Sequence record: OR842557
Direction: 5' to 3' (one strand)
Length of the DNA stretch: 64,000 nucleotides
Origin: Escherichia phage 04086
Position 1 is the stretch's first letter; each line of letters begins with the position of its first letter. Below the pieces are notes generated by a model, which worked only from the letters and a program-made list of their open reading frames with translations, was not told the origin of the DNA and did not search any database. The translations under genes were made by a program, and so were the position numbers. Below, piece after piece: positions 5,327-24,616 of this stretch.

Positions 5327-6239
5327 ATGAAATTCTCTAAAGAAACTCTGAACATTCTGAAAAACTTCTCCAGTATTAACCCAGGTATCATGCTTAAGCC
5401 TGGTAACACTATTCTAACTCGTTCAGTAACGGGTGCAAGTTATGGTGAAGCTACTGTAAGCGATACCTTTGATATCGAAGCCGCAATCTATGATTTGAAC
5501 GGCTTCTTAAGTATTCTGTCATTGGTATCTGATAGTGCTGAAGTTTCGGTAAGTGAAGACCAAACCACCTTAATTATTAAAGACCAACGTTCAACTATTA
5601 AATGGCCTATTGCCGACCCAAGTACAATCGCATTCCCAAGCAAAGCTATTCCATTCCCGGTGGCTGAAGTTATTTTTGACCTTAAAGCCGAAGATTACCA
5701 ACAGTTGATGCGTGTGTCCTCTGGATTGAGTATTGATACATTTGCTATCACTGTAGACAACGGTAAAATTGTAATCAATGGCTACAAACAAGTTGATGAT
5801 AAGGACCTGGCACGTCCATTGTATTCCTTAGTGGNGCACAATTGCATTCCCAAGCAAAGCTATTCCGTTCCCGGTGGCTGAAGTTATTTTTGACCTTAAA
5901 GCCGAAGATTACCAACAGTTGATGCGTGTGTCCTCTGGATTGAGTATTGATACATTTGCTATCACTGTAGACAACGGTAAAATTGTAATCAATGGCTACA
6001 AACAAGTTGATGATAAGGACCTGGCACGTCCATTGTATTCCTTAGTGGTTGCAGACCATGATGGTCCTGAATTCAAATTCATTATCAACAAAACCAATAT
6101 GAAAATGATGCCTGCTGATTACCATGTATTGCTATGGGCTCGTGGTGAAGGTCAGGACGCTCGTTTCGCAGCCAAGTTTGAAGGTTCACAAGCTTCTTAT
6201 GTATTGGCTATGGAAGCAGGCTCAAGCCACTCGTTCTAA
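5327..6239 (+). CDS. 45: sliding clamp gp45
   Basis: 228-aa class, conserved order 45-44-62-regA-43; contains N-junction duplication at 5835. Confidence 0.9.
5622..6048 (+). repeat. N-flanked near-identical duplication (N at 5835), likely artefact
   Basis: ~210 bp of gene 45 repeated with mismatches. Confidence 0.7.
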
Positions 6240-8193: not shown

Positions 8194-8400
8194 ATGAGTT
8201 CAATAACCCAACTTCAAGTATCCGATATGGGTGGGATTAAAATTCCTGCTCCTAGTTGGATTAATCTTCCAATTGACGAACAGATACAGCATCAAGTTAA
8301 ATTGGCTTTATCCGAAAGTCAAGAACCACGTGCTATTATGGTCTTCACATATGATAAAGACCGTCATCCTCAAATGCAACGTCAGGTTATTGAAATTTAA
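8194..8400 (+). CDS. hypothetical protein (68 aa) in regA-43 intergenic region
   Basis: ORF only; no recognisable motifs. Confidence 0.3.
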   Translation: MSSITQLQVSDMGGIKIPAPSWINLPIDEQIQHQVKLALSESQEPRAIMVFTYDKDRHPQMQRQVIEI

Positions 8401-8403
8401 GCA

Positions 8404-8434
8404 AAGGGACTTCGGTCCCTTTTTGGAGTATAAT
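8404..8434 (+). terminator. hairpin + T-run followed by TTGGAGTATAAT (terminator and/or gene 43 operator/promoter)
   Basis: AAGGGAC-TTCG-GTCCCTT then TTTT then TTGGAGTATAAT, ~50 nt upstream of gene 43 ATG. Confidence 0.5.
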
Positions 8435-8482
8435 AATTCATCAACAAACAAAAGACAATCACTCGTCTATAAAGGAAATGAA

Positions 8483-11194
8483 ATGCAAGAATTCTATTTG
8501 ACAGTCGAACAAATCGGTGATAATATTCTCGAACGTTACATCGATAAAAATGGTAACGAACGTAGTCGTGAAGTTCCATACAAGCCTACAATGTTTATGC
8601 ATGCTAATCCAGAGCAAGCCGTAAAATACATTGATATCTATGGTAAGGGTTGTGTTAAGAAAGAATTCGACTCTATGCGTGATGCATCCCAATGGATGAA
8701 ACGTATGGATGATATGGGCCTCGAAGCCCTGGGTATGGACGACTATAAATTAGCCTATTTGTCTGATACCTATCGTAAAGAAATCAAATATGATTCTTCT
8801 AAGATTCGTATTGCTAACTTCGACATCGAGGTAACATCTCCTGATGGATTCCCTGAACCAGCTCAGGCTAAACATCCTATCGATGCCATTACCCACTACG
8901 ACTCGATTGACGATAAATTCTATGTATTCGACCTTTTAGTTTCGCCTTATGGTACTGTTGAAGAGTGGTCGATTAAAATCGCTGAGAAACTCCAAGACGA
9001 AGGTGGTGACGAAGTTCCACAGGAAATCATTGACAAAATCGTTTATCTTCCGTTTAATTCTGAAGAAGAAATGATGCTTGAGTATCTGAATTTCTGGCAA
9101 CAGAAAACTCCTGTGATTTTGACTGGATGGAACGTTGAATCATTTGACGTGCCGTACGTTTATAACCGTCTGAAAAATCTGTTCGGTGAGAACACTGCTA
9201 AGCGATTAAGCCCACATCGTAAAACTCGTGTTAAAGTTATCGAGAACATGTACGGTGCTCGTGAAATCATTACTTTGTTCGGCATCTCTGTTCTGGATTA
9301 TATCGACCTCTATAAAAAATTCAGCTTCACCAACCAGCCTTCTTATTCTCTGGATTATGTTTCTGAATATGAATTGAAAGTAGGTAAGTTGAAATATGAT
9401 GGTCCAATCTCCAAGTTACGTGAGACGAACCACCAACGATATATTTCCTATAATATTATCGACGTATATCGTGTAGTGCAGATTGATATGAAACGCCAGT
9501 TCATTCTTCTGAGTTTGGACATGGGTTATTATGCTAAGATGCAGATTCAGTCGGTGTTTAGTCCAATTAAGACTTGGGACGCTATTATCTTTAATAGCCT
9601 TAAAGAGCAAGGCAAGGTAATTCCACAAGCTCGTTCACACGTGGTTCAACCTTATCCTGGTGCTTTCGTTAAGGAACCTATTCCTAACGCTTACAAATAT
9701 GTAATGAGTTTCGACCTTACATCTCTGTACCCGAGTATCATTCGACAAGTGAATATAAGCCCAGAGACCATCGCAGGGACATTCGCTAACGCACCGATAC
9801 ATGAATATATTGCCGGAACAGCTCCGCGTCCTAGCGACGTCTACAGTTGCTCTCCTAACGGCATGATGTACTATAAAGACCGCGATGGTGTGATTCCTAC
9901 AGAAATCACTAAGGTGTTCTTACAACGTAAAGAACATAAAGGTTATATGCTTGCAGCTCAACGTAATGGTGAGTTAATTAAAGAAGCATTAGAAAATCCT
10001 AATCTCTCGGCTGATAGTCCACTGGATATCGATTATCGTTTTGACTTCTCTGACGAAATCAAAGCCAAGATTAAAACGCTGTCAGCACCTTCTTTAAGAG
10101 AAATGTTGTTCAGAGCTGAACGTACCGAAGTTGCAGGTATGACTGCTCAGATTAACCGTAAGTTGCTTATCAACTCCCTTTATGGTGCACTTGGTAACGT
10201 ATGGTTCCGTTATTACGACCTCAGGAACGCAACTGCAATCACACTGTTTGGTCAAATGGCCCTCCAATGGATTGAACGTAAGGTTAACGAATATCTGAAT
10301 AGCGTGTGTAAGACTGAAAATCAGAAGTTCGTGCTCTATGGTGATACTGACTCCATTTATGTTAAGGCGGATGCAATCATCAATAAAGTAGGCGAAGACA
10401 AATTCCGTGATACTAACCACTGGGTTGACTTCTTAGATAAATTTGCACGTGAACGTATGGAACCGGCTATTGATGCAGGCTTCCGTGAGATGTGCGAGTA
10501 CATGAACAACAAACAGCACTTGATGTTCATGGACCGAGAAGCTATCGCAGGTCCTCCACTTGGTTCTAAAGGTCTTGGTGGATTCTGGACAGGTAAGAAA
10601 CGTTATGCACTGAACGTTTGGGACATGGAAGGTACTCGTTATGCCGAACCGCACTTGAAAATCATGGGCCTCGAAACTCAGAAATCAAGTACACCTAAAG
10701 CAGTTCAGAAAGCTCTGAAGGAATGTATCCGTCGTATGCTTCAGGAAGGTGAGGCATCTTTGCAAGAATATTTCAAACAGTTTAATAAGGAATTTAACGA
10801 ACTCAACTATGTAAGCATTGCAGCAGTATCCAGTGCTAACAACATCGAGAAATATAATGAAGGTGGATTCCCGGGTTCTAAATGTCCATACCACATCAAA
10901 GGTTGCTTAGCTTACATGCGTGCTTCTGCAGGTGATTTGACTATGCCTCGTATCGTTGATGGTGAAAAGGTATATGTACTGCCACTTAAAGAAGGCAACC
11001 CATTCGGTGAAGCATGTATGGCATGGCCGTCAGGTATTGAACTCCCGATTCAGATTCGTGACCAAGTCCTCCGTTGGATGGACTACAACGTACTGTTCCA
11101 AAAGACCTTTATCAAACCTCTGACCGGTTTTACCGAGTCTGCTAAAATCGACTACGAGAAAAAAGCAACATTATTTGACATGTTCGACTTTTAA
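8483..11194 (+). CDS. 43: DNA polymerase gp43 (family B)
   Basis: exo I FDIE, DLTSLYPS, KLLINSLYG, YGDTDS; 903 aa; start at MQEFYL with AAAGGA RBS (ORF-track 5' extension rejected). Confidence 0.95.
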   Translation: MQEFYLTVEQIGDNILERYIDKNGNERSREVPYKPTMFMHANPEQAVKYIDIYGKGCVKKEFDSMRDASQWMKRMDDMGLEALGMDDYKLAYLSDTYRKEIKYDSSKIRIANFDIEVTSPDGFPEPAQAKHPIDAITHYDSIDDKFYVFDLLVSPYGTVEEWSIKIAEKLQDEGGDEVPQEIIDKIVYLPFNSEEEMMLEYLNFWQQKTPVILTGWNVESFDVPYVYNRLKNLFGENTAKRLSPHRKTRVKVIENMYGAREIITLFGISVLDYIDLYKKFSFTNQPSYSLDYVSEYELKVGKLKYDGPISKLRETNHQRYISYNIIDVYRVVQIDMKRQFILLSLDMGYYAKMQIQSVFSPIKTWDAIIFNSLKEQGKVIPQARSHVVQPYPGAFVKEPIPNAYKYVMSFDLTSLYPSIIRQVNISPETIAGTFANAPIHEYIAGTAPRPSDVYSCSPNGMMYYKDRDGVIPTEITKVFLQRKEHKGYMLAAQRNGELIKEALENPNLSADSPLDIDYRFDFSDEIKAKIKTLSAPSLREMLFRAERTEVAGMTAQINRKLLINSLYGALGNVWFRYYDLRNATAITLFGQMALQWIERKVNEYLNSVCKTENQKFVLYGDTDSIYVKADAIINKVGEDKFRDTNHWVDFLDKFARERMEPAIDAGFREMCEYMNNKQHLMFMDREAIAGPPLGSKGLGGFWTGKKRYALNVWDMEGTRYAEPHLKIMGLETQKSSTPKAVQKALKECIRRMLQEGEASLQEYFKQFNKEFNELNYVSIAAVSSANNIEKYNEGGFPGSKCPYHIKGCLAYMRASAGDLTMPRIVDGEKVYVLPLKEGNPFGEACMAWPSGIELPIQIRDQVLRWMDYNVLFQKTFIKPLTGFTESAKIDYEKKATLFDMFDF

Positions 11195-11493: not shown

Positions 11494-11627
11494 AAATAAT
11501 TGTTTTATTTCTTATAATGGCTGCCTTTACCGTTTATTGGGCAGTGGCAATTCCACCAATGATTCCGACACTAATCATCGGATGGATTATTCTTATAGCA
11601 CAAATTAAGTATAACTGTTTTAATTGA
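11490..11627 (+). CDS. small hydrophobic membrane peptide (45 aa)
   Basis: ATGA overlap with imm stop; entirely hydrophobic; below ORF-track cutoff. Confidence 0.35.
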   Translation: MKIIVLFLIMAAFTVYWAVAIPPMIPTLIIGWIILIAQIKYNCFN

Positions 11628-11634
11628 GGATATT

Positions 11635-12135
11635 ATGAAAAAGTTAATTATCGCAATGAGTATGCTCCTATCAGGTTGCGCGGTCCAATATGGTGATGCA
11701 GTTTCGGCTGATGAAGTTGGTAAAGCTCGTATCGCAGCTGAACAGAAACAATTCGATGGCGAAATGAAATTCCGTGCCGGTTCTGGACTTGTGTATACCC
11801 GAGCTAATAATCAATGCGGTAATAACTGTGCAAAATATGCTCAACGAGAAATTGAATTCCAACGTGAACAAGAGTCCAAGCGTGAAGCGGTACTAGCCAA
11901 ACACCAGGCAGAAATGAAGCGCCAAGATGATTTGTACAAAAAGCAGAAACTGTATGCGATGTGCGTAAACCATATCAATCTACAGATTTCCATCCATGAG
12001 GCTCGTTATTACGAAATGCTCGAAACTGAGAGCTTCGGTAAAGCTCGTGATTATAAGAAACAAATCGATAAGCTCAAGACCAAAGTACCAGCGGCAATAG
12101 AACAGTGTATTGAAATCGGTAAAGATAAGATTTAA
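11635..12135 (+). CDS. predicted lipoprotein (166 aa)
   Basis: signal peptide with lipobox LLSGC; charged coiled-coil-like mature region. Confidence 0.6.
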   Translation: MKKLIIAMSMLLSGCAVQYGDAVSADEVGKARIAAEQKQFDGEMKFRAGSGLVYTRANNQCGNNCAKYAQREIEFQREQESKREAVLAKHQAEMKRQDDLYKKQKLYAMCVNHINLQISIHEARYYEMLETESFGKARDYKKQIDKLKTKVPAAIEQCIEIGKDKI

Positions 12136-12195
12136 GCAATACCAATTTATTAAAAATAGTGTATAATGTACCTACATTCACTTGAGGAACAGATA

Positions 12196-13869
12196 ATGAA
12201 AAAGGTTGTTATTTTAGGCGCGGGTCTTGGCTCACGGTTGTATCCAATTACCAACGAAATCCCGAAGGTACTGGTTAACTACAAACAACATACCGTATTA
12301 AAACATTTGTACGATTTGTATAGTAACCAATCGGATGAAATTATTCTGGTTATTCACAGCAAATTTAACGACCTCGTTAAAGGCTATATTAAATCCATTA
12401 ACATGATTAATAGTGATAAGCCTAAATTCACTATTCGTAACGTAGACGTGGCCAATGGTTCAGCTCATGCTATCGATTGCATTGCTGAAGATATCATTGG
12501 GCACAATGTCCTGTTTAACTGGTGTGACATCATTCCTGAAGGTCATAAGGTTGAGTGGGATAACGACTATTGCTATACTTACGGGACTGACTGTCGTTTT
12601 ACATTTGAAGAACCGTACTTGCGTGAAATTGGTACTGGCGGTGGTGTGGTTGGTTTGTATCAGGTGGCTAATTGGACAGGTTTTAACGGTCTGTATTATG
12701 GCGAAGACCTGGCCGACAACCTGGATTCAATGGTCCATTTGACTGAACGTAAGCTGGACTTTGTGGTTGATGTCGGTGACAAATTGAAACTGGCCAAGGC
12801 CCATGAAGATTCTGAAATTAACCGTGAATTTAATAAATTAGAGTTCACTGAGAATCTGGCTATTAAAGTACCAACTAACGAATTGGGTAAAGAAATCCAA
12901 TCTAAAGAAATCAATTGGTATAATTCTATTGATTCTGAATTCGTTCCTAGCATTGTAGACTTTGCTCCAGGCGAATTCATTAAAATGGAACGTATCTTTG
13001 GTCGTACCATGGCAGATGCCTACCGGTTTATGTCTAAAGAAACCAAAGTCCTCATGGTTTATAAGGTCATTAGTGCATTGCGTTCATTCGGCGGAACTAT
13101 CGATAACCCATCCGATGAGCAATGGTATTCTGATGTTAAGAAAGAAGTATTGGACAAGGTCCTTATTCGTAATGCTTCTATTGCCGGATTGATTGAAGGC
13201 TTTGCTCCACAGGGCATTACCCATGTTAACGACTTCAAGGTAGGCGACCCTGAAAAGCTTCTCCGTCACGCACTAGAAATTCTGTCTGAACATAAAGAAC
13301 CGTACCAACTTATTCATGGTGACCCGCACTACAGTAATATTATGCTGTCGGACGAAGGTGATATTAAAATCATCGACCCGCGTGGTTATTTTGGTAATAG
13401 TTCTAAAGGCCCTGCGATTTATGACGAAGCTAAGGTGCTTTATTCTATCGATGGTTATGACAAATTTAACTCTGACCCTCTATGGGGTGGTTTAACTCGT
13501 AACGGGACCCGTGTATTCGTTGATATTGAAAAGGTTATGCCTTTAGATGATATTCCAATGTGTACATTTAAGCACAAGCTCTGGATTGCTGTTATCTGGA
13601 TGGCATTGGCAGGTTACTTTAAAAATAACCCTCTGAAAGCTCTGGGTGCTTATTACAACGGTCTATATCAACTGAGTGTGCTGCTTAAGCGGCATCCTCG
13701 TAAGCGTAAGCTTATTACAGGTGAATTTGTCGATGAAGTTCGTGACCCTATTACGGCTCAAATTATCACTCGTTGTCCTGATAAGTGGGTTTTGCTTGAC
13801 CAGGAAACTGGTGTAAAATATAAACCTACAGGTTCTACTGAACTCCACAAACAATGGAAGAAAATTTAA
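12196..13869 (+). CDS. bifunctional nucleotidyltransferase / APH-like (anomeric sugar or alcohol) kinase
   Basis: N-terminus VVILGAGLGSRLYPITNEIPKVLV (GxGxRL..PK nucleotidyltransferase signature); C-terminus HGDPHYSNIM + IIDPRGYFG (Brenner motif of APH/choline-kinase fold); start at MKKVVIL with GAGGAA RBS (track start 12166 sits inside TATAAT). Confidence 0.75.
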   Translation: MKKVVILGAGLGSRLYPITNEIPKVLVNYKQHTVLKHLYDLYSNQSDEIILVIHSKFNDLVKGYIKSINMINSDKPKFTIRNVDVANGSAHAIDCIAEDIIGHNVLFNWCDIIPEGHKVEWDNDYCYTYGTDCRFTFEEPYLREIGTGGGVVGLYQVANWTGFNGLYYGEDLADNLDSMVHLTERKLDFVVDVGDKLKLAKAHEDSEINREFNKLEFTENLAIKVPTNELGKEIQSKEINWYNSIDSEFVPSIVDFAPGEFIKMERIFGRTMADAYRFMSKETKVLMVYKVISALRSFGGTIDNPSDEQWYSDVKKEVLDKVLIRNASIAGLIEGFAPQGITHVNDFKVGDPEKLLRHALEILSEHKEPYQLIHGDPHYSNIMLSDEGDIKIIDPRGYFGNSSKGPAIYDEAKVLYSIDGYDKFNSDPLWGGLTRNGTRVFVDIEKVMPLDDIPMCTFKHKLWIAVIWMALAGYFKNNPLKALGAYYNGLYQLSVLLKRHPRKRKLITGEFVDEVRDPITAQIITRCPDKWVLLDQETGVKYKPTGSTELHKQWKKI

Positions 13870-14228
13870 TGCATCTGTGTTTTGATATCGATAATACCAT
13901 TACTCACTGGCAAGATGACCGTGATTACGAAAACTTTAAACCGGACACCGAAATGGTGTCCATGATTAATAAGCTTTATGACGAAGGTCACGAGATTACA
14001 TTGTTCACTGCTCGTGGTATGACTTCATGTGGCCCTGGTCGAATCTTGGTTGAAGTAGTTCCTGCATTGGTTAAGAACCTTGAAAAGATCGGATTGAAAT
14101 ATCATAATCTGCTTACACATAAGCCGAGTTATACTTTTATCATCGATGACCGAGCAATCCGTCCTGACCATTTTAAAGAAATGGTTCGTGAAGGAACTCT
14201 TGAAACCTATAAGGCATATCATCCGTGA
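13869..14228 (+). CDS. HAD-superfamily phosphatase (small)
   Basis: motif I FDIDNTIT near N-terminus, LFTAR, IIDDR; start overlaps upstream stop (TAATG). Confidence 0.7.
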   Translation: MHLCFDIDNTITHWQDDRDYENFKPDTEMVSMINKLYDEGHEITLFTARGMTSCGPGRILVEVVPALVKNLEKIGLKYHNLLTHKPSYTFIIDDRAIRPDHFKEMVREGTLETYKAYHP

Positions 14229-14761
14229 ACCCAAAAATCATTGTTATCGACGGCCCGGATAATTCCGGGAAGTCTACTTTAATTGAATCACTTTTATCTG
14301 ATAAGAAATATCGTCTTATTGATTTCCCTAAAAAGATTAATGGCAAATGCATTTCATTAGGGACTGATAATGACAAGGCTTTAGTCGAGACGTTGTATAA
14401 GTTTTTAGACCCTAATTTCGTTTACATCCTTGACCGTGGTTATCCAAGTAATATAGTTTACTCGGGATTCCTTCGTGGTGAAATGGACCCTTATGTAGAA
14501 CTAGCAGATTGGATTGATTTCAAAAAAGAATTCAATATCATTGAGATTATTTTAACCCGTAATCCACTGGATAAAGACTTCGAAGACGACCTTATTAAAT
14601 TAACCAAAGATGAGTTCAACTTAACTATCCAAAAATATGAAGACTGTTTTAAAAATGTTTTTAAAGTTTTAAACCATGACGGATATAATAACTTGCTTAA
14701 CGTCGATATGGTAGAATTAAAACGTCTGAATGAATATATTGAAAATAAGGTGAATAAATGA
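14225..14761 (+). CDS. thymidylate-kinase-like P-loop (d)NMP kinase
   Basis: P-loop IDGPDNSGKST and DRGYPSNIVY (TMK DRY-like); GTG start overlapping upstream stop. Confidence 0.65.
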   Translation: MNPKIIVIDGPDNSGKSTLIESLLSDKKYRLIDFPKKINGKCISLGTDNDKALVETLYKFLDPNFVYILDRGYPSNIVYSGFLRGEMDPYVELADWIDFKKEFNIIEIILTRNPLDKDFEDDLIKLTKDEFNLTIQKYEDCFKNVFKVLNHDGYNNLLNVDMVELKRLNEYIENKVNK

Positions 14762-15456
14762 AACACATTACCGCTGTTAGTTTTGAAAACGCGTTTAAGC
14801 AAATGAACGAAGAAATCCTGGAAGCTCCACAGTTTGCAGTTGATTCTCGTATCGGCCGTTGTTATGAAATCGGTTCTGCTTCGGTAGAAGTACTGGATGC
14901 AAGCACCTATAAATTCACCGACCCTCGTATTAATCGTATCAACTATGATTATGCCGAATCTTTCTGGAAGTTTATGATTTCCGGTGGTACTGATGCCGCC
15001 GAAGCATTTAAGGAATACCCTAATGTTGCTAAGTTCATTGATAAGCCGAAAAGTGACGTATTGCCTGCAAACTTCAACACTTTCTATGGACCTCGAATTG
15101 TGGCCCAACTCCCAGCCCTACTTAAAGAGCTTAAAGAAAAGCCTAACTCGAGACGAGTTGTGTTCCAAATTCTCCAAGAACAAGACCAAGCCCTCCTTGA
15201 TTCTGACGAATCCTTAGAATATCCGTGTACCGATTCGGTAACATATTATATTCGTGATGGACGTCTGTATGCACACACTCATATGCGTTCACAGAACTGT
15301 GCTATCGTTATGCAGCTGGATTTCTATCTGCAGGGTAAACTGATGGCCTTTATTGCTGAACAGTGTGGTGTTGGTCTGGGTACGTATTCCCATACTATGG
15401 TTAGTGCACATGTATTTGAACGTGATTTTAACTACGTTCGAGGATTCCTGAAATGA
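14758..15456 (+). CDS. 42: thymidylate-synthase-fold pyrimidine hydroxymethylase (gene 42-like, divergent)
   Basis: PNSRR, catalytic Cys in EYPCTD, HMRSQN...QLD with Asp at the cytosine-specifying position; syntenic with T4 gene 42. Confidence 0.6.
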   Translation: MKHITAVSFENAFKQMNEEILEAPQFAVDSRIGRCYEIGSASVEVLDASTYKFTDPRINRINYDYAESFWKFMISGGTDAAEAFKEYPNVAKFIDKPKSDVLPANFNTFYGPRIVAQLPALLKELKEKPNSRRVVFQILQEQDQALLDSDESLEYPCTDSVTYYIRDGRLYAHTHMRSQNCAIVMQLDFYLQGKLMAFIAEQCGVGLGTYSHTMVSAHVFERDFNYVRGFLK

Positions 15457-16346
15457 GTTTGTTTATCGTTCCTATTTTCAGTATGCGTAGTTACGAAACA
15501 GGTGAATATGCCGTCCTTAAGGACGGCAATTTTCAACTCCATTTAAACCGTGCTTGCCCAGGTGATTATCTGGCTTATCCTAGAAATTCGAGCGATATCA
15601 AAGAATGTATTGAATTATTTCCTGAACTGAATTTCGTGCCGCTTTGGTATAAAGAAAATGCTTATGAGACCCGTAAACATTTTTGGTCCGAAAATGAGTT
15701 TGTCGTTGATTCGTTAATCGAATACTATGACTGCTCGGGATTAGTAACCGATATCACTGGTTATGATGGTGCTCAGACTGTACAATTCAACTTTAACATT
15801 ACAATGGACCCTGAAGTTCCTCGTTATTACATCGATGAGTTTATTGATACCGACGTGTCTTCAGTTGAACGTTCGATTTATACTACAGTCTTGAACCAAT
15901 GTCAGAAAGACGTCCTGGTGTCACGAGGTGTGTCCTCTGATAAGATTTTTGTAGACCAAAAGGTAATTAATCCGGCAGTAATTGAGCGTTACTCTGAAGG
16001 TCTAGCGCCTATTAAAATTGATGGTATTTTCCACCCATTCCGTATTTCGGATAAGTGTTATCAATTCGAAAGAGTTGTAGACCAAGCTGCGGCTGAAGGT
16101 GCTCGTCTTTATATCACCGACCCGAATGATTCGTTTAAACGTGAAGACTATCGTCCTGATGTAGAGATTATTAAATTCAAACCGAGTAAGGTTGAATATT
16201 ATCAGATTCTGAAATCAAGACCCCATATCATTTATCATGAGAACCCTGGTTTAGTATTCCATCCTGGTCTAGCTGAATTCATTTATTTCGGTGCCCATAT
16301 CCATTCCGAGCACGAAATGCCAAGTTATGAGGACGTGGTCCTTTAA
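15453..16346 (+). CDS. unknown protein in beta-gt syntenic slot (candidate DNA-modifying transferase)
   Basis: 297-aa ORF between TS-like gene and uvsX; no similarity to T4 beta-gt that I can recognise; function is inference from position. Confidence 0.55.
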   Translation: MSLFIVPIFSMRSYETGEYAVLKDGNFQLHLNRACPGDYLAYPRNSSDIKECIELFPELNFVPLWYKENAYETRKHFWSENEFVVDSLIEYYDCSGLVTDITGYDGAQTVQFNFNITMDPEVPRYYIDEFIDTDVSSVERSIYTTVLNQCQKDVLVSRGVSSDKIFVDQKVINPAVIERYSEGLAPIKIDGIFHPFRISDKCYQFERVVDQAAAEGARLYITDPNDSFKREDYRPDVEIIKFKPSKVEYYQILKSRPHIIYHENPGLVFHPGLAEFIYFGAHIHSEHEMPSYEDVVL

Positions 16347-16423: not shown

Positions 16424-17596
16424 ATGTCTGATTTAAAATCCCGTTTGATTAAAGCTTCTACTTCTAAAATGACTGCCGACCTGACCAAATCTAAATTGTT
16501 TAATGGTCGTGACGAAGTTCCTACTCGTATCCCTATGCTGAATATTGCATTAGGTGGTGCGTTGAATGCAGGCTTACAATCAGGTTTGACAATCTTTGCT
16601 GCTCCATCTAAACACTTTAAAACGTTGTTTGGACTTACCATGGTTGCGGCATATATGAAGAAATATCCAGACGCAATTTGTTTGTTCTATGACTCTGAGT
16701 TCGGTGCTTCAGAATCTTATTTCCGTTCGATGGGTGTTGATTTGGAACGTGTGGTTCATACACCAATCCAGTCAGTCGAACAGCTGAAGGTTGATATGAC
16801 CAACCAGTTAGAAGAAATTACTCGTGGCGAAAAGGTTATTATCTTTATCGACTCCATTGGTAACACTGCTTCTAAGAAAGAAACCGAAGATGCTTTGAAC
16901 GAGAAAGTTGTAGGTGATATGACTCGTGCTAAGTCACTGAAATCTCTGTTCCGTATCGTAACACCTTATCTGACCATCAAGGATATCCCTTGCGTAGCAA
17001 TTAACCACACTGCTATGGAAATTGGTGGAATGTACCCTAAAGAGATTATGGGTGGCGGTACTGGTATTCTGTACTCTGCTTCTACCGTGTTCTTTATCTC
17101 TAAACGCCAAGTTAAAGATGGTACCGAGCTCACAGGTTACGACTTCACACTGAAGGCAGAGAAATCTCGTACGGTTAAAGAGAAATCAACGTTCCCTATC
17201 ACCGTTAACTTCGAAGGCGGCATTGACCCATTCAGTGGATTGCTTGAAATGGCTACTGATATCGGTTTTGTTGTGAAACCTAAAGCTGGTTGGTATAATC
17301 GTGCATTCCTTGACGAAACCACAGGTGAAATGGTTCAAGAAGAAAAAGCATGGCGTGCTAAAGCTACCGATTGTGTTGAGTTCTGGGGACCGCTGTTTAA
17401 ACATGCTCCGTTCCGTGAAGCAATCGAGAATAAGTATAAGCTTGGTGCAATTAATTCTATTAAAGAAGTTGACGATGCGGTAAATGACCTTATTAACTCT
17501 CGTGTCTCTAAGAACGTTGCTGTTAAATTAAGCGGAAATACCCAAAGCGCCGCTGATATCGAAAACGATTTAGAAGAGATGGATTTAGATGACTGA
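16424..17596 (+). CDS. uvsX: recombinase UvsX (RecA-like)
   Basis: 390 aa; RecA-fold ATPase motifs; strong similarity to T4 UvsX as recalled. Confidence 0.95.
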   Translation: MSDLKSRLIKASTSKMTADLTKSKLFNGRDEVPTRIPMLNIALGGALNAGLQSGLTIFAAPSKHFKTLFGLTMVAAYMKKYPDAICLFYDSEFGASESYFRSMGVDLERVVHTPIQSVEQLKVDMTNQLEEITRGEKVIIFIDSIGNTASKKETEDALNEKVVGDMTRAKSLKSLFRIVTPYLTIKDIPCVAINHTAMEIGGMYPKEIMGGGTGILYSASTVFFISKRQVKDGTELTGYDFTLKAEKSRTVKEKSTFPITVNFEGGIDPFSGLLEMATDIGFVVKPKAGWYNRAFLDETTGEMVQEEKAWRAKATDCVEFWGPLFKHAPFREAIENKYKLGAINSIKEVDDAVNDLINSRVSKNVAVKLSGNTQSAADIENDLEEMDLDD

Positions 17597-20283: not shown

Positions 20284-20523
20284 ATGAATATTACCTTAAT
20301 GAAACCAACTCCTAGTTCTTTTTGGAACAAATCTTTCGGTAAGCATAATATGTTTATCCAACGTACCGTAAACAACTGGGAACTGGTTCTTTCAGTTGGT
20401 CACAATGATTATGAACAAGAATACGTAGAGTTCTTCGAATTTCCTGTGAAGCCTACTAAGCGTCAGATTCGTCAGACAAAACGTAAATTCCGTAAGATTT
20501 ATTTGGAAGATTCGTTAAAATAA
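20284..20523 (+). CDS. hypothetical basic protein
   Basis: ORF, tight packing. Confidence 0.45.
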   Translation: MNITLMKPTPSSFWNKSFGKHNMFIQRTVNNWELVLSVGHNDYEQEYVEFFEFPVKPTKRQIRQTKRKFRKIYLEDSLK

Positions 20524-20524
20524 A

Positions 20525-20566
20525 GTTTACAACGGTCTATGGTAGTGATACTATAGACCTATCAAC
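20525..20566 (+). promoter_or_regulatory. early promoter (GTTTAC / TACTAT / AGACCTATCAAC)
   Basis: promoter family member, 18-bp spacer. Confidence 0.6.
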
Positions 20567-20582
20567 TAACGAGGAGTTAAAA

Positions 20583-20876
20583 ATGAAAAAGTTATTAATC
20601 GCAGCAATCCTTACAGTAGCATCATGTGGCACGGCTCCAGTTACGGCTGGATTGGATAAAGACCTTTGTGAATGGTCTATGACCGCAGACCAAGAATCGG
20701 TTGAACATCAGATTTATGCTGATATCATGAACATCACTAAACGTGACCGTCCTGACATGGTTAAAGAAGTGTCCGACCAATTAGCTTCAACCGGTGTTAT
20801 GCAGTACAACTATGTTTTGTATTGTGACGCTAATTTCGATAACAAAAACATTGTTAAAGAGGTTACAGGTGAGTAA
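20583..20876 (+). CDS. predicted lipoprotein (97 aa)
   Basis: signal peptide with lipobox TVASC. Confidence 0.55.
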   Translation: MKKLLIAAILTVASCGTAPVTAGLDKDLCEWSMTADQESVEHQIYADIMNITKRDRPDMVKEVSDQLASTGVMQYNYVLYCDANFDNKNIVKEVTGE

Positions 20877-20877
20877 A

Positions 20878-21735
20878 ATGATTAACAGAACTTTGGTTAT
20901 TAAAAAGCTTCGTTGTAAAAATCCAAACGCACAAGCATACAGGATGTTTTGGAGCGACGACCATCAGTACCTAGGTTATTTTATTGTTGATAGCGACGAT
21001 AGAATTGTATTCGCTCATAAACTTCTTAACAGAGAATTAAACCATTGGCAAGAACTTATTACTGTTAAGTCTAAATTATTTTCGCTCAATGTAATGCACC
21101 AATTGGTTTATTTTTTCGCTGACGGGTTTCCGGACAAGGTTGAATTTGAAGGATTCGAATTTAAAGATATCCACCCGGACAACGAATTGAATGACGGCGT
21201 TAATATGGATATCCCTAGCAAGTATATCAAAAACAGTCTGTTGAAAANCGCGGTGAGGTCTAAATTATTTTCGTGCAATACAATGCACCAATTGGTTTAT
21301 TTTTTCGCTGAAGGTATTCCTGACAAGGTTGAGTTTGATGGATTCGAATTTAAAGACATCCTCCCAGACAACGAATTGAACGACCGCGTTAATATGGACA
21401 TCCCTAGCAAGTATATCAAAAACAGTCTGTTGAAAATTCTGGAAGCTCCAGTTTATTCAATTGACGACCAGATTTTTAATGNTACTGTTAAGTCTAAATT
21501 ATTTTCGCTCAATGTAATGCACCAATTGGTTTATTTTTTCGCTGACGGGTTTCCGGACAAGGTTGAATTTGAAGGATTCGAATTTAAAGATATCCACCCG
21601 GACAACGAATTGAATGACGGCGTTAATATGGATATCCCTAGCAAGTATATCAAAAACAGTCTGTTGAAAATTCTGGAAGCTCCAGTTTATTCAATTGACG
21701 ACCAGATTTTTAATGCCTTTATGAATCGAGGTTGA
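20878..21735 (+). CDS. hypothetical protein; apparent triple repeat is N-junction duplication
   Basis: start MINRTL overlapping upstream stop; three ~230-bp near-identical units separated by N at 21248 and 21481. Confidence 0.45.
   Translation: MINRTLVIKKLRCKNPNAQAYRMFWSDDHQYLGYFIVDSDDRIVFAHKLLNRELNHWQELITVKSKLFSLNVMHQLVYFFADGFPDKVEFEGFEFKDIHPDNELNDGVNMDIPSKYIKNSLLKXAVRSKLFSCNTMHQLVYFFAEGIPDKVEFDGFEFKDILPDNELNDRVNMDIPSKYIKNSLLKILEAPVYSIDDQIFNXTVKSKLFSLNVMHQLVYFFADGFPDKVEFEGFEFKDIHPDNELNDGVNMDIPSKYIKNSLLKILEAPVYSIDDQIFNAFMNRG
21060..21720 (+). repeat. N-flanked triplicated unit (N at 21248, 21481-21482), likely artefact
   Basis: three near-identical copies with scattered mismatches. Confidence 0.65.
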
Positions 21736-23874: not shown

Positions 23875-24616
23875 ATGGCTCATTTTAATGAATGTTCTCA
23901 ACTGATTGCAGGTGTTGATAAAGCTGAGGAAGCTTATTTTAATGCTCTGATTCACGAAGATAAAGACCCTCTGCAGGTTATGCTTGATATGCAGAAATCT
24001 TTGCAGGTCCGTTTATCTAAAGATAAACCTGAATATAACCGTCATCCTGATGACTTGGCCACTGCAGGTGAAGTTGTTGATTGGTTGCGTAATCAGAAAG
24101 ATTATATTGATGACGAATTCCGCGAACTTCTGACTTCTCTTGGTGGCATGAGCAATGGCGAAAAAGATGCATCTGCAGTATGGAAGCCTTGGAAAGCTCA
24201 ACATGCTGAACGTCGTGAAACCTTGATTAACGATTTGTCTCCTGAAGACCAGCTCGAAATTAAATTNTGATGATTTGGCTACTGCAGGTGAAGTTGTTGA
24301 TTGGCTGCGTAATCAGAAAGATTATATTGATGATGAATTCCGTGAACTTCTGACTTCTCTTGGTGGTATGAGCAATGGTGAAAAAGATGCATCTGCAGTA
24401 TGGAAGCCTTGGAAAGCTCAACATGCTGAACGTCGTGAAACCTTGATTAACGATTTGTCTCCTGAAGACCAGCTCGAAATTAAATTCGAAATGATTGATA
24501 TTCTGCACTTTGTTCTGAATATGTTCCAGGGTCTTGGACTGACTGCTGAAGAAATCTTTAAACTGTATTATCTGAAAAATGCCGAGAACTTTGCTCGTCA
24601 AGACCGAGGTTATTAA
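23875..24616 (+). CDS. 56: dCTPase/dUTPase gp56 (MazG-like NTP pyrophosphatase)
   Basis: all-alpha NTP-PPase acidic motifs (DDEFRELL, EMIDILHF); ~172 aa once duplication at 24267 is removed. Confidence 0.75.
24048..24486 (+). repeat. N-flanked near-identical duplication (N at 24267), likely artefact
   Basis: ~218-bp unit repeated. Confidence 0.7.

Follow-up and report, generated by a model that had tools for sequence, protein, structure and literature searches.

The five-gene cassette

The DNA analysed here, a stretch of 64,000 nucleotides from Escherichia phage 04086 (sequence record OR842557; "the window"), is the draft genome of a T-even phage of the Dhakavirus type. Between 12 and 17 kb, where the sequence contains no N bases (24 lie in other parts of the window), five genes overlap in series and encode a UDP-arabinose enzyme, a phosphatase, a kinase, a synthase and an arabinosyltransferase (Table 1). 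They are orthologs of RB69 gp52:53, gp51, gp45, gp48 and gp46:47 and form an arabinosyl-5-hydroxycytosine cluster, with the arabinosyltransferase and both UDP-arabinose enzymes located together. Dhakaviruses have been named among the carriers of this cluster (PMC13326640). A preliminary description of the same DNA had treated the kinase and the thymidylate synthase (TS)-fold gene as a stand-alone pair, a view that has to be given up because both belong to the larger cassette. Both open reading frames were found where it had placed them.

Table 1. Features of the cassette and of the dCTPase gene, in window coordinates
Feature	Coordinates	Strand	Support
Bifunctional sugar kinase/nucleotidyltransferase, AfhE-like (= RB69 gp52:53)	12166..13869	+	Pfam, PHROG, RB69 match
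HAD-family phosphatase, AfhF-like (= RB69 gp51)	13854..14228	+	Hydrolase_3, TIGR01689, RB69 gp51
TMK-fold P-loop nucleotide kinase, ortholog of RB69p045/DLP3_078	14225..14761	+	RB69p045, phrog_761
Walker A/P-loop GPDNSGKST of the kinase	14252..14278	+	Conserved in family
DRGYPSNIVY, counterpart of the thymidylate-kinase DR(Y/H)..S..AYQ NMP-binding motif	14432..14461 (DRGY 14432–14443)	+	Alignment
TS-fold putative 5-hydroxy-dCMP synthase, ortholog of RB69 gp48/DLP3 gp80	14758..15456	+	PF00303, PDB, RB69
EYPCTD: E154 (ThyA L143 position), catalytic Cys157 (ThyA C146)	15217..15234	+	Alignment
RSQNCAIVMQLD: R177/S178 (ThyA R166/S167), N180, V184, D188	15286..15321	+	Alignment
DNA arabinosyltransferase 1, ortholog of RB69 gp46:47	15453..16346	+	RB69p047/RB69p046, phrog_3891
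gp56-type dCTPase (removes dCTP, supplies dCMP)	23875..24613	+	tblastn with RB69p028

The AfhE-like protein combines Pfam NTP_transferase (residues 13–110) and APH (356–427) domains and is matched by phrog_4098 (E=6e-269, with the alignment beginning at residue 11) and by RB69 52:53 (41% identity, E=3e-110). The true start of its gene is probably the ATG at 12196, which is preceded by a GAGGA Shine–Dalgarno sequence. By analogy with HY126 AfhE, whose function is known in the summary form given in PMC13326640, the enzyme is predicted to carry out two steps, the conversion of arabinose-5-P into arabinose-1,5-bisP and that of arabinose-1-P into UDP-arabinose. The intervening step from arabinose-1,5-bisP to arabinose-1-P is predicted for the AfhF-like phosphatase, whose gene overlaps its neighbours on both sides and whose product matches Pfam Hydrolase_3 weakly, the NCBIfam capsule biosynthesis phosphatase model TIGR01689 with E=5e-14 and RB69 gp51 with 63% identity. 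Databases mis-annotate this HAD protein as "phosphoheptose isomerase".

At the other end of the cassette, the arabinosyltransferase is 69% identical to RB69p047 over its N-terminal 179 aa and 63% identical to RB69p046 over its C-terminal 114 aa, and matches phrog_3891 with E=7e-158. RB69 gp46:47 is split in the RB69 record owing to a sequencing error. The function of DNA arabinosyltransferase 1 is assigned in Table 1 of PMC13326640. The gp56-type dCTPase gene lies outside the cassette and was recovered with RB69p028 as two overlapping pieces of 88% and 86% identity; it is disrupted by an assembly duplication around the N at 24267, and this N is flanked by a 219-nt direct repeat. Homologs of the RB69 arabinose-5-P isomerase (gp55), of gp50 and of the second arabinosyltransferase (gp3) were not found within the window.

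The two central genes are tightly joined to their surroundings. The kinase gene (178 aa) starts on a GTG that shares bases with the stop codon of the HAD gene before it (GTGA), and this start is confirmed by the orthologs of related phages: L006, L008–L011 and L013 have an ATG at exactly the same position, and L005 and L007 likewise begin with GTG. The ATG of the TS-fold gene (232 aa) in turn overlaps the kinase stop (ATGA), in agreement with the translational coupling described before, and at its end its stop codon shares bases with the ATG of the following gene at 15453. No terminator-like sites were found on the + strand within the cassette, a MotA-box search of 11–16.5 kb gave no match, and a promoter scan was uninformative (19 sites observed versus 16.6 expected).

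The TS-fold enzyme and its active site

The TS fold of the synthase is evident from its match to Pfam Thymidylat_synt (PF00303, E=8e-14; score 51.8 bits, cutoff 24.3), and the column of the catalytic Cys157 is invariant in the family alignment. Its best matches in the PDB are 9iqu, 9iqc and 9ir2 (E=7e-125, 78.8% identity, full-length). These entries probably represent the HY126 enzyme; the 9IQU chain is identical to RB69 gp48 at 228 of 231 positions. Identity to RB69 gp48 itself is 78% over 231 aa and ranges from 78 to 79% for RB69 gp48, DLP3 gp80 and the HY126 synthase (length class 232 versus 238 aa). The RB69 record begins six residues earlier, and no functional difference from RB69 gp48 is visible. 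Identity to T4 gp42, in contrast, is 25% over 159 aa, in line with the divergence noted earlier.

The alignment with gp42 and ThyA that had been proposed as a check was run. In ThyA numbering, Cys146 and Asp177 are kept, D169 is replaced by Asn and G173 by Val. Thus, E154 of the window protein represents L143E, N180 the diagnostic D169N and V184 G173V, and D188 (nt 15319–15321) represents N177D, at the position of ThyA N177 and T4 gp42 D179 that gives dCMP specificity. The cytosine-specifying Asp is therefore where it had been described. All 26 Straboviridae orthologs and RL38J1 share the signature E143/C146/N169/V173/D177 without change; together with T147 it is also identical in the 5-hydroxy-dCMP synthases RB69 gp48, DLP3 gp80 and that of HY126, which have the arabinosyltransferase 1, AfhE-like and AfhF-like neighbours in common with the window. 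T4 gp42 reads D143/D169/G173/D177 at the signature positions, and its RSNDVVFG corresponds to RSQNCAIV in the window, which lacks the gp42-type Asp169 and Gly173 of RSxDxxxG. At the position of the catalytic Glu (ThyA E58, gp42 E60) a Phe is aligned, with a Glu two residues off (AESFW), in an N-terminal region that aligns poorly.

The D169N exchange is informative: RB69 gp48 and DLP3 gp80 bind FMN and make 5hodCMP from dCMP with incorporation of 18O supplied as O2, the exchange was predictive of activity for nine more homologs, and all tested D169N homologs gave 5hodC and not 5hmdC (PMC13326640). Judged by this signature and by its close orthologs, the TS-fold enzyme is very probably a flavin- and O2-dependent 5-hydroxy-dCMP synthase. 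The expectation that the nucleotide would be something other than ordinary hm-dCMP was borne out; the assignment as a dCMP hydroxymethylase was not, given the D169N signature and the 78% identity to a 5-hydroxy-dCMP-making enzyme.

The hydroxymethylase reading, in which a divergent gp42 analog uses methylene-THF and the kinase serves hm-dCMP or a further-modified nucleotide, draws on real likenesses to T4 gp42 (PDB 1B5E). The two share the TS fold, the catalytic Cys, the Asp at 177/179 and a hydroxymethylase-like acidic residue at 143. Like T4 gene 42, with which it is syntenic, the TS-fold gene is placed between gene 43 and uvsX, and certain GenBank records name its product dCMP hydroxymethylase. 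However, gp42 and ThyA both carry Asp at position 169, the exchanges at 169 and 173 fall in the folate-contacting segment, the 25% identity to gp42 compares with 78% to a proven 5hodCMP maker, and the "arabinosyl-hmC" of RB69 has since been corrected to arabinosyl-5-hydroxy-C. In addition, no beta-glucosyltransferase homolog was found within the window. The exchanges and the identities largely refute this reading, which we consider extremely improbable. According to the literature on orthologs, the chemistry differs accordingly: T4 gp42 uses methylene-THF and leaves 5-CH2OH, whereas 5-hydroxy-dCMP synthases use flavin and O2 and leave 5-OH. Among relatives of known structure, the CMP 5-hydroxymethylase MilA (PDB 5B6D/5JNH; E=2e-14 over a nearly full-length alignment) ranks directly behind the phage enzymes; it differs in its ribonucleotide substrate, its folate chemistry and its length (about 100 aa longer).

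Databases list the TS-fold gene under either "thymidylate synthase" or "dCMP hydroxymethylase". The RefSeq and PHROG names would fit an ordinary thymidylate synthase that supplies dTTP together with an ordinary dTMP kinase. For the synthase, Asp instead of Asn at 177 excludes a dUMP preference, and none of the NCBIfam TS equivalog models comes close to its cutoff (62 versus 174 bits; 41 versus 108).

The TMK-fold kinase and its candidate substrate

The kinase matches phrog_761 (E=3e-39) and RB69p045 (37% identity, E=9e-36). A homolog search with the single sequence returned 9 close matches only, and a profile was required for more. Both motifs that had been reported for it are present: across 14 diverse family members G10, P11, D12, N13, G15 and K16 of the P-loop are invariant, as are D70, R71, V78 and Y79 of the second motif, with S75 nearly so, and DRGYPSNIVY aligns to DRHDLSTQAY of E. 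coli Tmk. The protein combines the P-loop and the DR(Y/H) motif in a TMK fold. Homology to T4 gp1 was looked for and not found. Its closest structural neighbours (YorR 3KB2 and TMKs) match those in Table 1 of PMC13326640, and it shares the TMK-like fold with RB69p045, DLP3_078 and RL38J1_214, all of which lie inside 5hoC clusters and are described there solely as "Nucleotide kinase". No enzymology for the kinase or for any ortholog was found in the accessible literature.

That TMKs are the best structural matches also speaks for the dTMP kinase half of the dTTP-supply explanation, as does a distant relative, P0096, which sits beside ThyX, dUTPase and dCMP deaminase in a dTMP context. However, the kinase scores under the curated Tmk thresholds (PF02223, 15.2 bits versus 27; TIGR00041, 19 bits versus 83), and against the Cmk model it reaches 21 bits with a cutoff of 135. 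Its NMP-binding lobe is about 30 aa shorter than in Tmk, and neither the thymine-stacking Phe nor the O4-binding Arg can be aligned. In hhalign, the thymine-binding helix of E. coli Tmk (F74/R78) faces a gap and a low-confidence hairpin (kinase residues 37–50, pLDDT 53–64), so that the base specificity of the kinase cannot be read from its sequence. Moreover, dTMP is the business of gp1 in T4, and gp1 is already present in this phage lineage; the kinase family, in addition, keeps company with dCMP-type TS homologs, as set out below. Taken as a pair of ordinary enzymes for dTTP supply, the two genes are very unlikely to be described correctly.

The genomic company of the kinase points to modified dCMP. 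It lies within the cluster in all 26 IMG/VR loci that have an N169 synthase (26/26), and in GenBank phages the kinase and synthase counts are near-identical by genus (Escherichia 176/176, Shigella 15/15, Serratia 9/9, Proteus 7/7). Distant kinase relatives are directly upstream of, and translationally coupled to, Asp177 TS homologs in 12 of 12 neighbours (7/7 IMG/VR loci and 5/5 metagenome loci with DNA), none of which has Asn177. In most of these distant loci a MazG/PRA-PH NTP pyrophosphatase is found just 5′ of the kinase, and P0061 shows a fusion of the two. The position within the cassette varies, the window kinase being upstream of the synthase and the RB69 kinase after the glycosyltransferase. 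The RB69 order (TS–GT–TMK-like kinase) recurs in RL38J1, an unrelated 5hoC phage with hexoses instead of arabinose. Since RL38J1 keeps a TMK-like kinase with a different sugar, the kinase appears to track the base modification and not the sugar. The similarity of RL38J1_214 to the window kinase is marginal (E=0.05), and its membership of the same family is unproven.

This association supports the idea of a putative kinase dedicated to modified dCMP. The accompanying argument, that the phage needs its own kinase since gp1 is encoded elsewhere, is weakened: Dhakavirus QL01 keeps its gp1 ortholog, T4 gp1 (PDB 1DEK) performs the very job inferred here (modified dCMP to dCDP), and RB69 gp159, the gp1 ortholog, converts 5hodCMP to 5hodCDP in vitro (PMC13326640). 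In the same study, 5hodC entered E. coli DNA on co-expression of the synthase and a gp1-type dNMP kinase (PMC13326640), so a gp1-type kinase suffices in the published assay and the TMK-fold kinase is not strictly required. On balance, phosphorylation of C5-modified dCMP (5hodCMP) is the likeliest role of the TMK-fold kinase, at about even odds.

If the TS assignment is kept, the kinase could have a role other than dNMP phosphorylation. It might act in UTP/UDP-sugar supply, on DNA-borne 5-hydroxycytosine or on a sugar, or be a non-essential passenger or a scaffold in a dNTP-synthesis complex. Enzymes of the NMP-kinase fold elsewhere phosphorylate gluconate, shikimate and chloramphenicol. Against a sugar role, the association holds with other sugars (RL38J1) and without sugar genes nearby (the MazG–kinase–TS triads), and the strong conservation of Walker A, DR, S and Y of the dNMP site argues against a passenger or scaffold. 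Morganella phage MP1 has an intact kinase adjoining uvsX, and in the first 150 of its 163 kb we found no N169 synthase, GT, AfhE or HAD gene. However, MP1 has a gp56-type dCTPase, and the TS homolog at its td position is unexpectedly Asp177, so it may still make modified dCMP; given this homolog and the 150 of 163 kb searched, MP1 does not cleanly separate the hypotheses on the kinase. We regard such other roles as unlikely.

More broadly, and tentatively, kinases with the pattern GPDNxGK(S/T)T ... DRxxxS(N/D/E)xVY could be a distinct family for C5-modified dCMP that moves as one module with TS homologs specific for cytosine through phages of unrelated lineages, a proposal to which we give slightly less than an even chance. 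The base served may be 5-hydroxy-C in Straboviridae, and perhaps in Pootjesviridae as well; in podovirus-like phages that encode PolA it is predicted to be hydroxymethyl-C, and there the MazG–kinase–TS triad is sometimes fused. In T-even-like phages the kinase may have arrived with the hydroxylase and glycosyltransferase that replaced gp42 and beta-gt. If true, this would add a second, modification-specific route to the diphosphate beside gp1.

Proposed pathway and implications

Orthology, active-site signature and gene order are established in the window, and experiments on orthologs reported in the literature cover the TS reaction, the flavin, O2 as oxygen source, the AfhE and AfhF reactions and DNA arabinosylation. 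On this basis the two genes are probably adjacent parts of a Dhakavirus-type arabinosyl-5-hydroxycytosine DNA hypermodification cassette that would work as follows. The gp56 dCTPase would provide dCMP, whose C5 would be activated by the conserved Cys of the TS-fold enzyme and hydroxylated to give 5-hydroxy-dCMP. O2 and a flavin (FMN) that the enzyme binds loosely would take the place of methylene-tetrahydrofolate; Cys attack plus flavin hydroperoxide chemistry is what we infer for this step. The TMK-fold kinase, probably alongside a gp1-type dNMP kinase encoded elsewhere, would convert 5hodCMP to 5hodCDP, host NDP kinase would produce 5hodCTP, and the phage polymerase would incorporate it. In parallel, the upstream AfhE-like and AfhF-like enzymes would turn host arabinose-5-phosphate into UDP-arabinose, and the downstream glycosyltransferase would arabinosylate 5-hydroxycytosine in the DNA.

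The majority of this finding is already known, as earlier publications report the cluster and the synthase for the genus. Annotation is clearly misleading for the TS-fold gene, and it belongs to a recently discovered TS branch in which folate has been swapped for flavin and cytosine is hydroxylated. Recognising it predicts that arabinosyl-5-hydroxycytosine takes the place of cytosine in the phage DNA, with a single arabinose expected from the one transferase in the window; a literature search found no direct chemical analysis of Dhakavirus DNA. The prediction bears on the sensitivity of the phage to restriction, CRISPR and type IV systems, and also on the sequencing and engineering of therapeutic coliphages. 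If the kinase is dedicated to modified dCMP, it would be a useful enzyme for the production of modified dNTPs, the nucleotide-level half of the pathway would be complete, and there would be an explanation for the three-gene module that is conserved among many uncultured phages.

The five-gene cassette and its surroundings

The kinase and TS-fold genes form the middle of a cassette of five plus-strand genes whose stop and start codons overlap or abut (see table). The cassette is flanked by the genes for DNA polymerase (8231-11194) and UvsX (16424-17596) and holds the position that gene 42 and beta-gt occupy in T4. Both reading frames of the pair lie where the preliminary description had placed them, including the GTG start and the GPDNSGKST, DRGY and EYPCTD motifs. 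The GTG, which overlaps the stop codon of the preceding gene (GTGA), is taken as the genuine kinase start because orthologs in related genomes start at exactly the same site (ATG in six genomes, GTG in two). The translational coupling of the pair is likewise borne out by the overlap of the kinase stop with the synthase ATG (ATGA), and the 3′ end of the synthase gene in turn overlaps the ATG at 15453. The gene of the AfhE-like bifunctional sugar kinase/nucleotidyltransferase has its longest reading frame from 12166, but probably starts at 12196, given that a GAGGA ribosome-binding site precedes this ATG and that the PHROG profile match begins at residue 11. No plus-strand terminator-like sites were found within the cassette, and a promoter scan remained at background level.

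Features of the cassette and related kinase-TS modules
Feature	Position	Strand	Remarks
Nucleotidyltransferase + APH-type kinase (AfhE-like)	12166/12196-13869	+	41% identity to RB69 gp52:53
HAD phosphatase	13854-14228	+	63% identity to RB69 gp51
Kinase	14225-14761	+	178 aa; GTG start
GPDNSGKST of kinase	14252-14278	+	
DRGY of kinase	14432-14443	+	
TS-fold gene	14758-15456	+	232 aa; ATG start
EYPCTD of TS-fold enzyme	15217-15234	+	
Arabinosyltransferase-type gene	15453-16346	+	63-69% identity to two halves of RB69 gp46:47
MazG/PRA-PH pyrophosphatase, TMK-like kinase, gp42-signature TS homolog	L033 5549-7346; L083 3540-5406; L085 3224-5349; L086 3393-5225		
Same module, pyrophosphatase and kinase fused (P0061)	L084 4001-5741		

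Between polymerase and cassette, the window encodes a predicted lipoprotein-like protein of 166 aa (11635-12135; phrog_1754, function unknown) that is also present in Morganella phage MP1, and a 36-codon stretch (11517-11624) with 56% identity to RB69p054, annotated in RB69 as “similar to T4 42-imm intercistronic region”. The G+C content is 32% in the kinase gene, 42% in the adjacent synthase gene and 39% in the window.

T-even coliphages of the Dhakavirus type (KIT01, IME341, WG01, QL01, Bp7, JS98) share 96-97.5% identity with the 5 kb around the gene pair. The window contains 24 N, none of them in 12-17 kb, and at least two are flanked by tandem direct repeats of 211-219 nt: those at 5624-6048 (N at 5835) and 24048-24486 (N at 24267) duplicate parts of genes 45 (sliding clamp) and 56 (dCTPase), respectively, and break these genes. 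The repeats look like unmerged contig overlaps, so the window is a draft assembly.

The TS-fold enzyme as a probable 5-hydroxy-dCMP synthase

RB69 gp48 and Acinetobacter phage DLP3 gp80 bind FMN and convert dCMP to 5-hydroxy-dCMP (5hodCMP), the hydroxyl oxygen deriving from O2; in RB69 DNA, arabinose is joined to C5 by an ether and not via a hydroxymethyl group (Lee et al., NAR 2026, PMC13326640). In the same study, Asn at ThyA position 169 served as diagnostic residue, and nine further homologs formed 5hodC as this residue had predicted; Dhakaviruses are listed there as one of the genera sharing the syntenic cluster. The window enzyme is 78% identical to RB69 gp48, and among PDB entries it best matches 9IQU/9IQC/9IR2 (E=7e-125, 78.8% identity), whose chain shares 228 of 231 residues with RB69 gp48 and is therefore presumably the HY126 structure cited in PMC13326640. 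In alignments, E143, C146, T147, N169, V173 and D177 are common to the window enzyme, 26 Straboviridae orthologs and gp216 of Rhizobium phage RL38J1, whereas T4 gp42 has D143, C146, D169, G173 and D177, and ThyA has L143, D169, G173 and N177. Together with NCBIfam thymidylate-synthase equivalog models scoring far below threshold, these data identify the enzyme, at the level of sequence, as a 5-hydroxy-dCMP synthase. By TS and flavin-monooxygenase chemistry, Cys157 would add to C6 of dCMP, and the C5 nucleophile so formed would attack the flavin C4a-hydroperoxide.

Thymidylate synthase was rejected on the basis of D177, N169 and the equivalog models, and dCMP hydroxymethylase because of N169/V173 in place of the D169/G173 of gp42 and the identity to RB69 gp48. 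The Asp singled out in the preliminary description, D188 of the window enzyme, occupies the alignment column of N177 in E. coli ThyA and D179 in T4 gp42, and the distance from gp42 noted there amounts to only 25% identity over 159 residues. Its expectation of a modified nucleotide other than hmC holds, and that of a dedicated kinase may hold, while the chemistry has to be corrected from hydroxymethylation to 5-hydroxylation and the five-gene cassette had been missed.

The Dhakavirus cassette is a reduced form of that of RB69. No homologs of RB69 gp55 (arabinose-5-P isomerase), gp50 (U32-peptidase-like) or gp3 (second arabinosyltransferase) were found in the 64 kb window; a gp56 homolog is present. 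As gp55 and gp3 are missing from the window, arabinose-5-P is expected to come from host KdsD/GutQ and the base to be mostly mono-arabinosylated.

Association of the kinase with cytosine-specific TS homologs

The kinase is an ortholog of RB69p045 (37% identity, E=9e-36). Table 1 of PMC13326640 gives RB69p045, DLP3_078 and RL38J1_214 no name other than “Nucleotide kinase” and reports TMK-like structural hits for them, and an earlier comparative paper guessed that the kinase “presumably” takes part in modification; no enzymatic assay of the kinase or its orthologs was found in the accessible literature. A profile of 14 sequences matched SPbeta YorR first (E=2e-11), followed by vaccinia and bacterial TMKs, and the kinase scores far below threshold in curated Tmk and Cmk models. 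G10, P11, D12, N13, G15, K16, D70, R71, V78, Y79 and D121 are invariant in the family and S75 is nearly so, a pattern corresponding to the predicted catalytic core and DR..S..Y dNMP motif. Base specificity is not readable from sequence because the NMP lobe lacks about 30 residues relative to that of Tmk, whose thymine-binding helix does not align. Between genera, the kinase is far more divergent than the synthase (37% versus 78% identity), and the AfhE-like gene is divergent to a similar degree (41%).

Among 50,697 phage records, tblastn detected the synthase in 420 and the kinase in 343, with nearly identical genus counts, and the kinase lies within the cluster in 26/26 IMG/VR loci with an N169 synthase. 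Two layouts occur: AfhE-HAD-kinase-(insert)-TS-GT-uvsX in the window and in Klebsiella and Proteus types, and AfhE-HAD-...-TS-GT-kinase-uvsX in RB69 and Acinetobacter phages (GT, glycosyltransferase). A 1.4-2 kb insertion separates kinase and synthase in Klebsiella-/Proteus-type IMG/VR phages (L011-L013, L019, L021), so the tight overlap is specific to the Dhakavirus layout. RL38J1, which is unrelated to T4 and carries hexosylated 5-hydroxy-C, has TS, GT and TMK-like kinase in the same order as RB69, plus a separate dNMP kinase.

Distant kinase relatives are encoded directly upstream of a TS homolog, translationally coupled in most cases, in PolA-encoding podovirus-like contigs of 40-66 kb from uncultured phages. 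A MazG/PRA-PH pyrophosphatase just precedes them and is fused to the kinase in P0061 (321 aa); the module looks like a minimal kit for swapping dC for C5-modified dC. All 12 TS neighbours with readable sequence have D143, D169, G173 and D177, the gp42-type, dCMP-specific signature. A still more distant relative adjoins ThyX, dUTPase and dCMP deaminase; the family thus merges gradually with ordinary kinases of the dTMP pathway. Thus, the kinase appears to track cytosine-specific TS homologs whatever the sugar, and because of this association we predict that it phosphorylates modified dCMP to dCDP, possibly as a dedicated enzyme.

Is the kinase needed?

Against this assignment, the kinase might not be needed for 5hodCMP phosphorylation. 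The RB69 gp1 ortholog phosphorylates 5hodCMP in vitro and, together with the synthase, is sufficient for 5hodC incorporation in E. coli (PMC13326640), and Dhakavirus QL01 keeps an ortholog of gp1 at the position syntenic with T4. Moreover, MP1 (Gualtarvirus, NC_031020) has an intact cluster-type kinase (20500-21030) between polymerase and uvsX, and a search of the first 150 of its 163 kb revealed neither an N169 synthase nor a glycosyltransferase, AfhE or HAD. However, MP1 has a gp56-type dCTPase and, at the td position, the TS homolog gp154 (142020-142859; YQRSADVPLGLNFD) with L143, D169, G173 and D177. The combination of Leu143 with Asp177 suggests a dCMP methylase, in which case MP1 DNA may carry 5-methylcytosine and a kinase for modified dCMP may still be required in this phage.

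The system as such is already described in the literature, this genus included. The predicted phosphorylation of modified dCMP by the kinase is the sole element beyond the published system, and for this substrate the evidence presented here is associative and yields a testable prediction.
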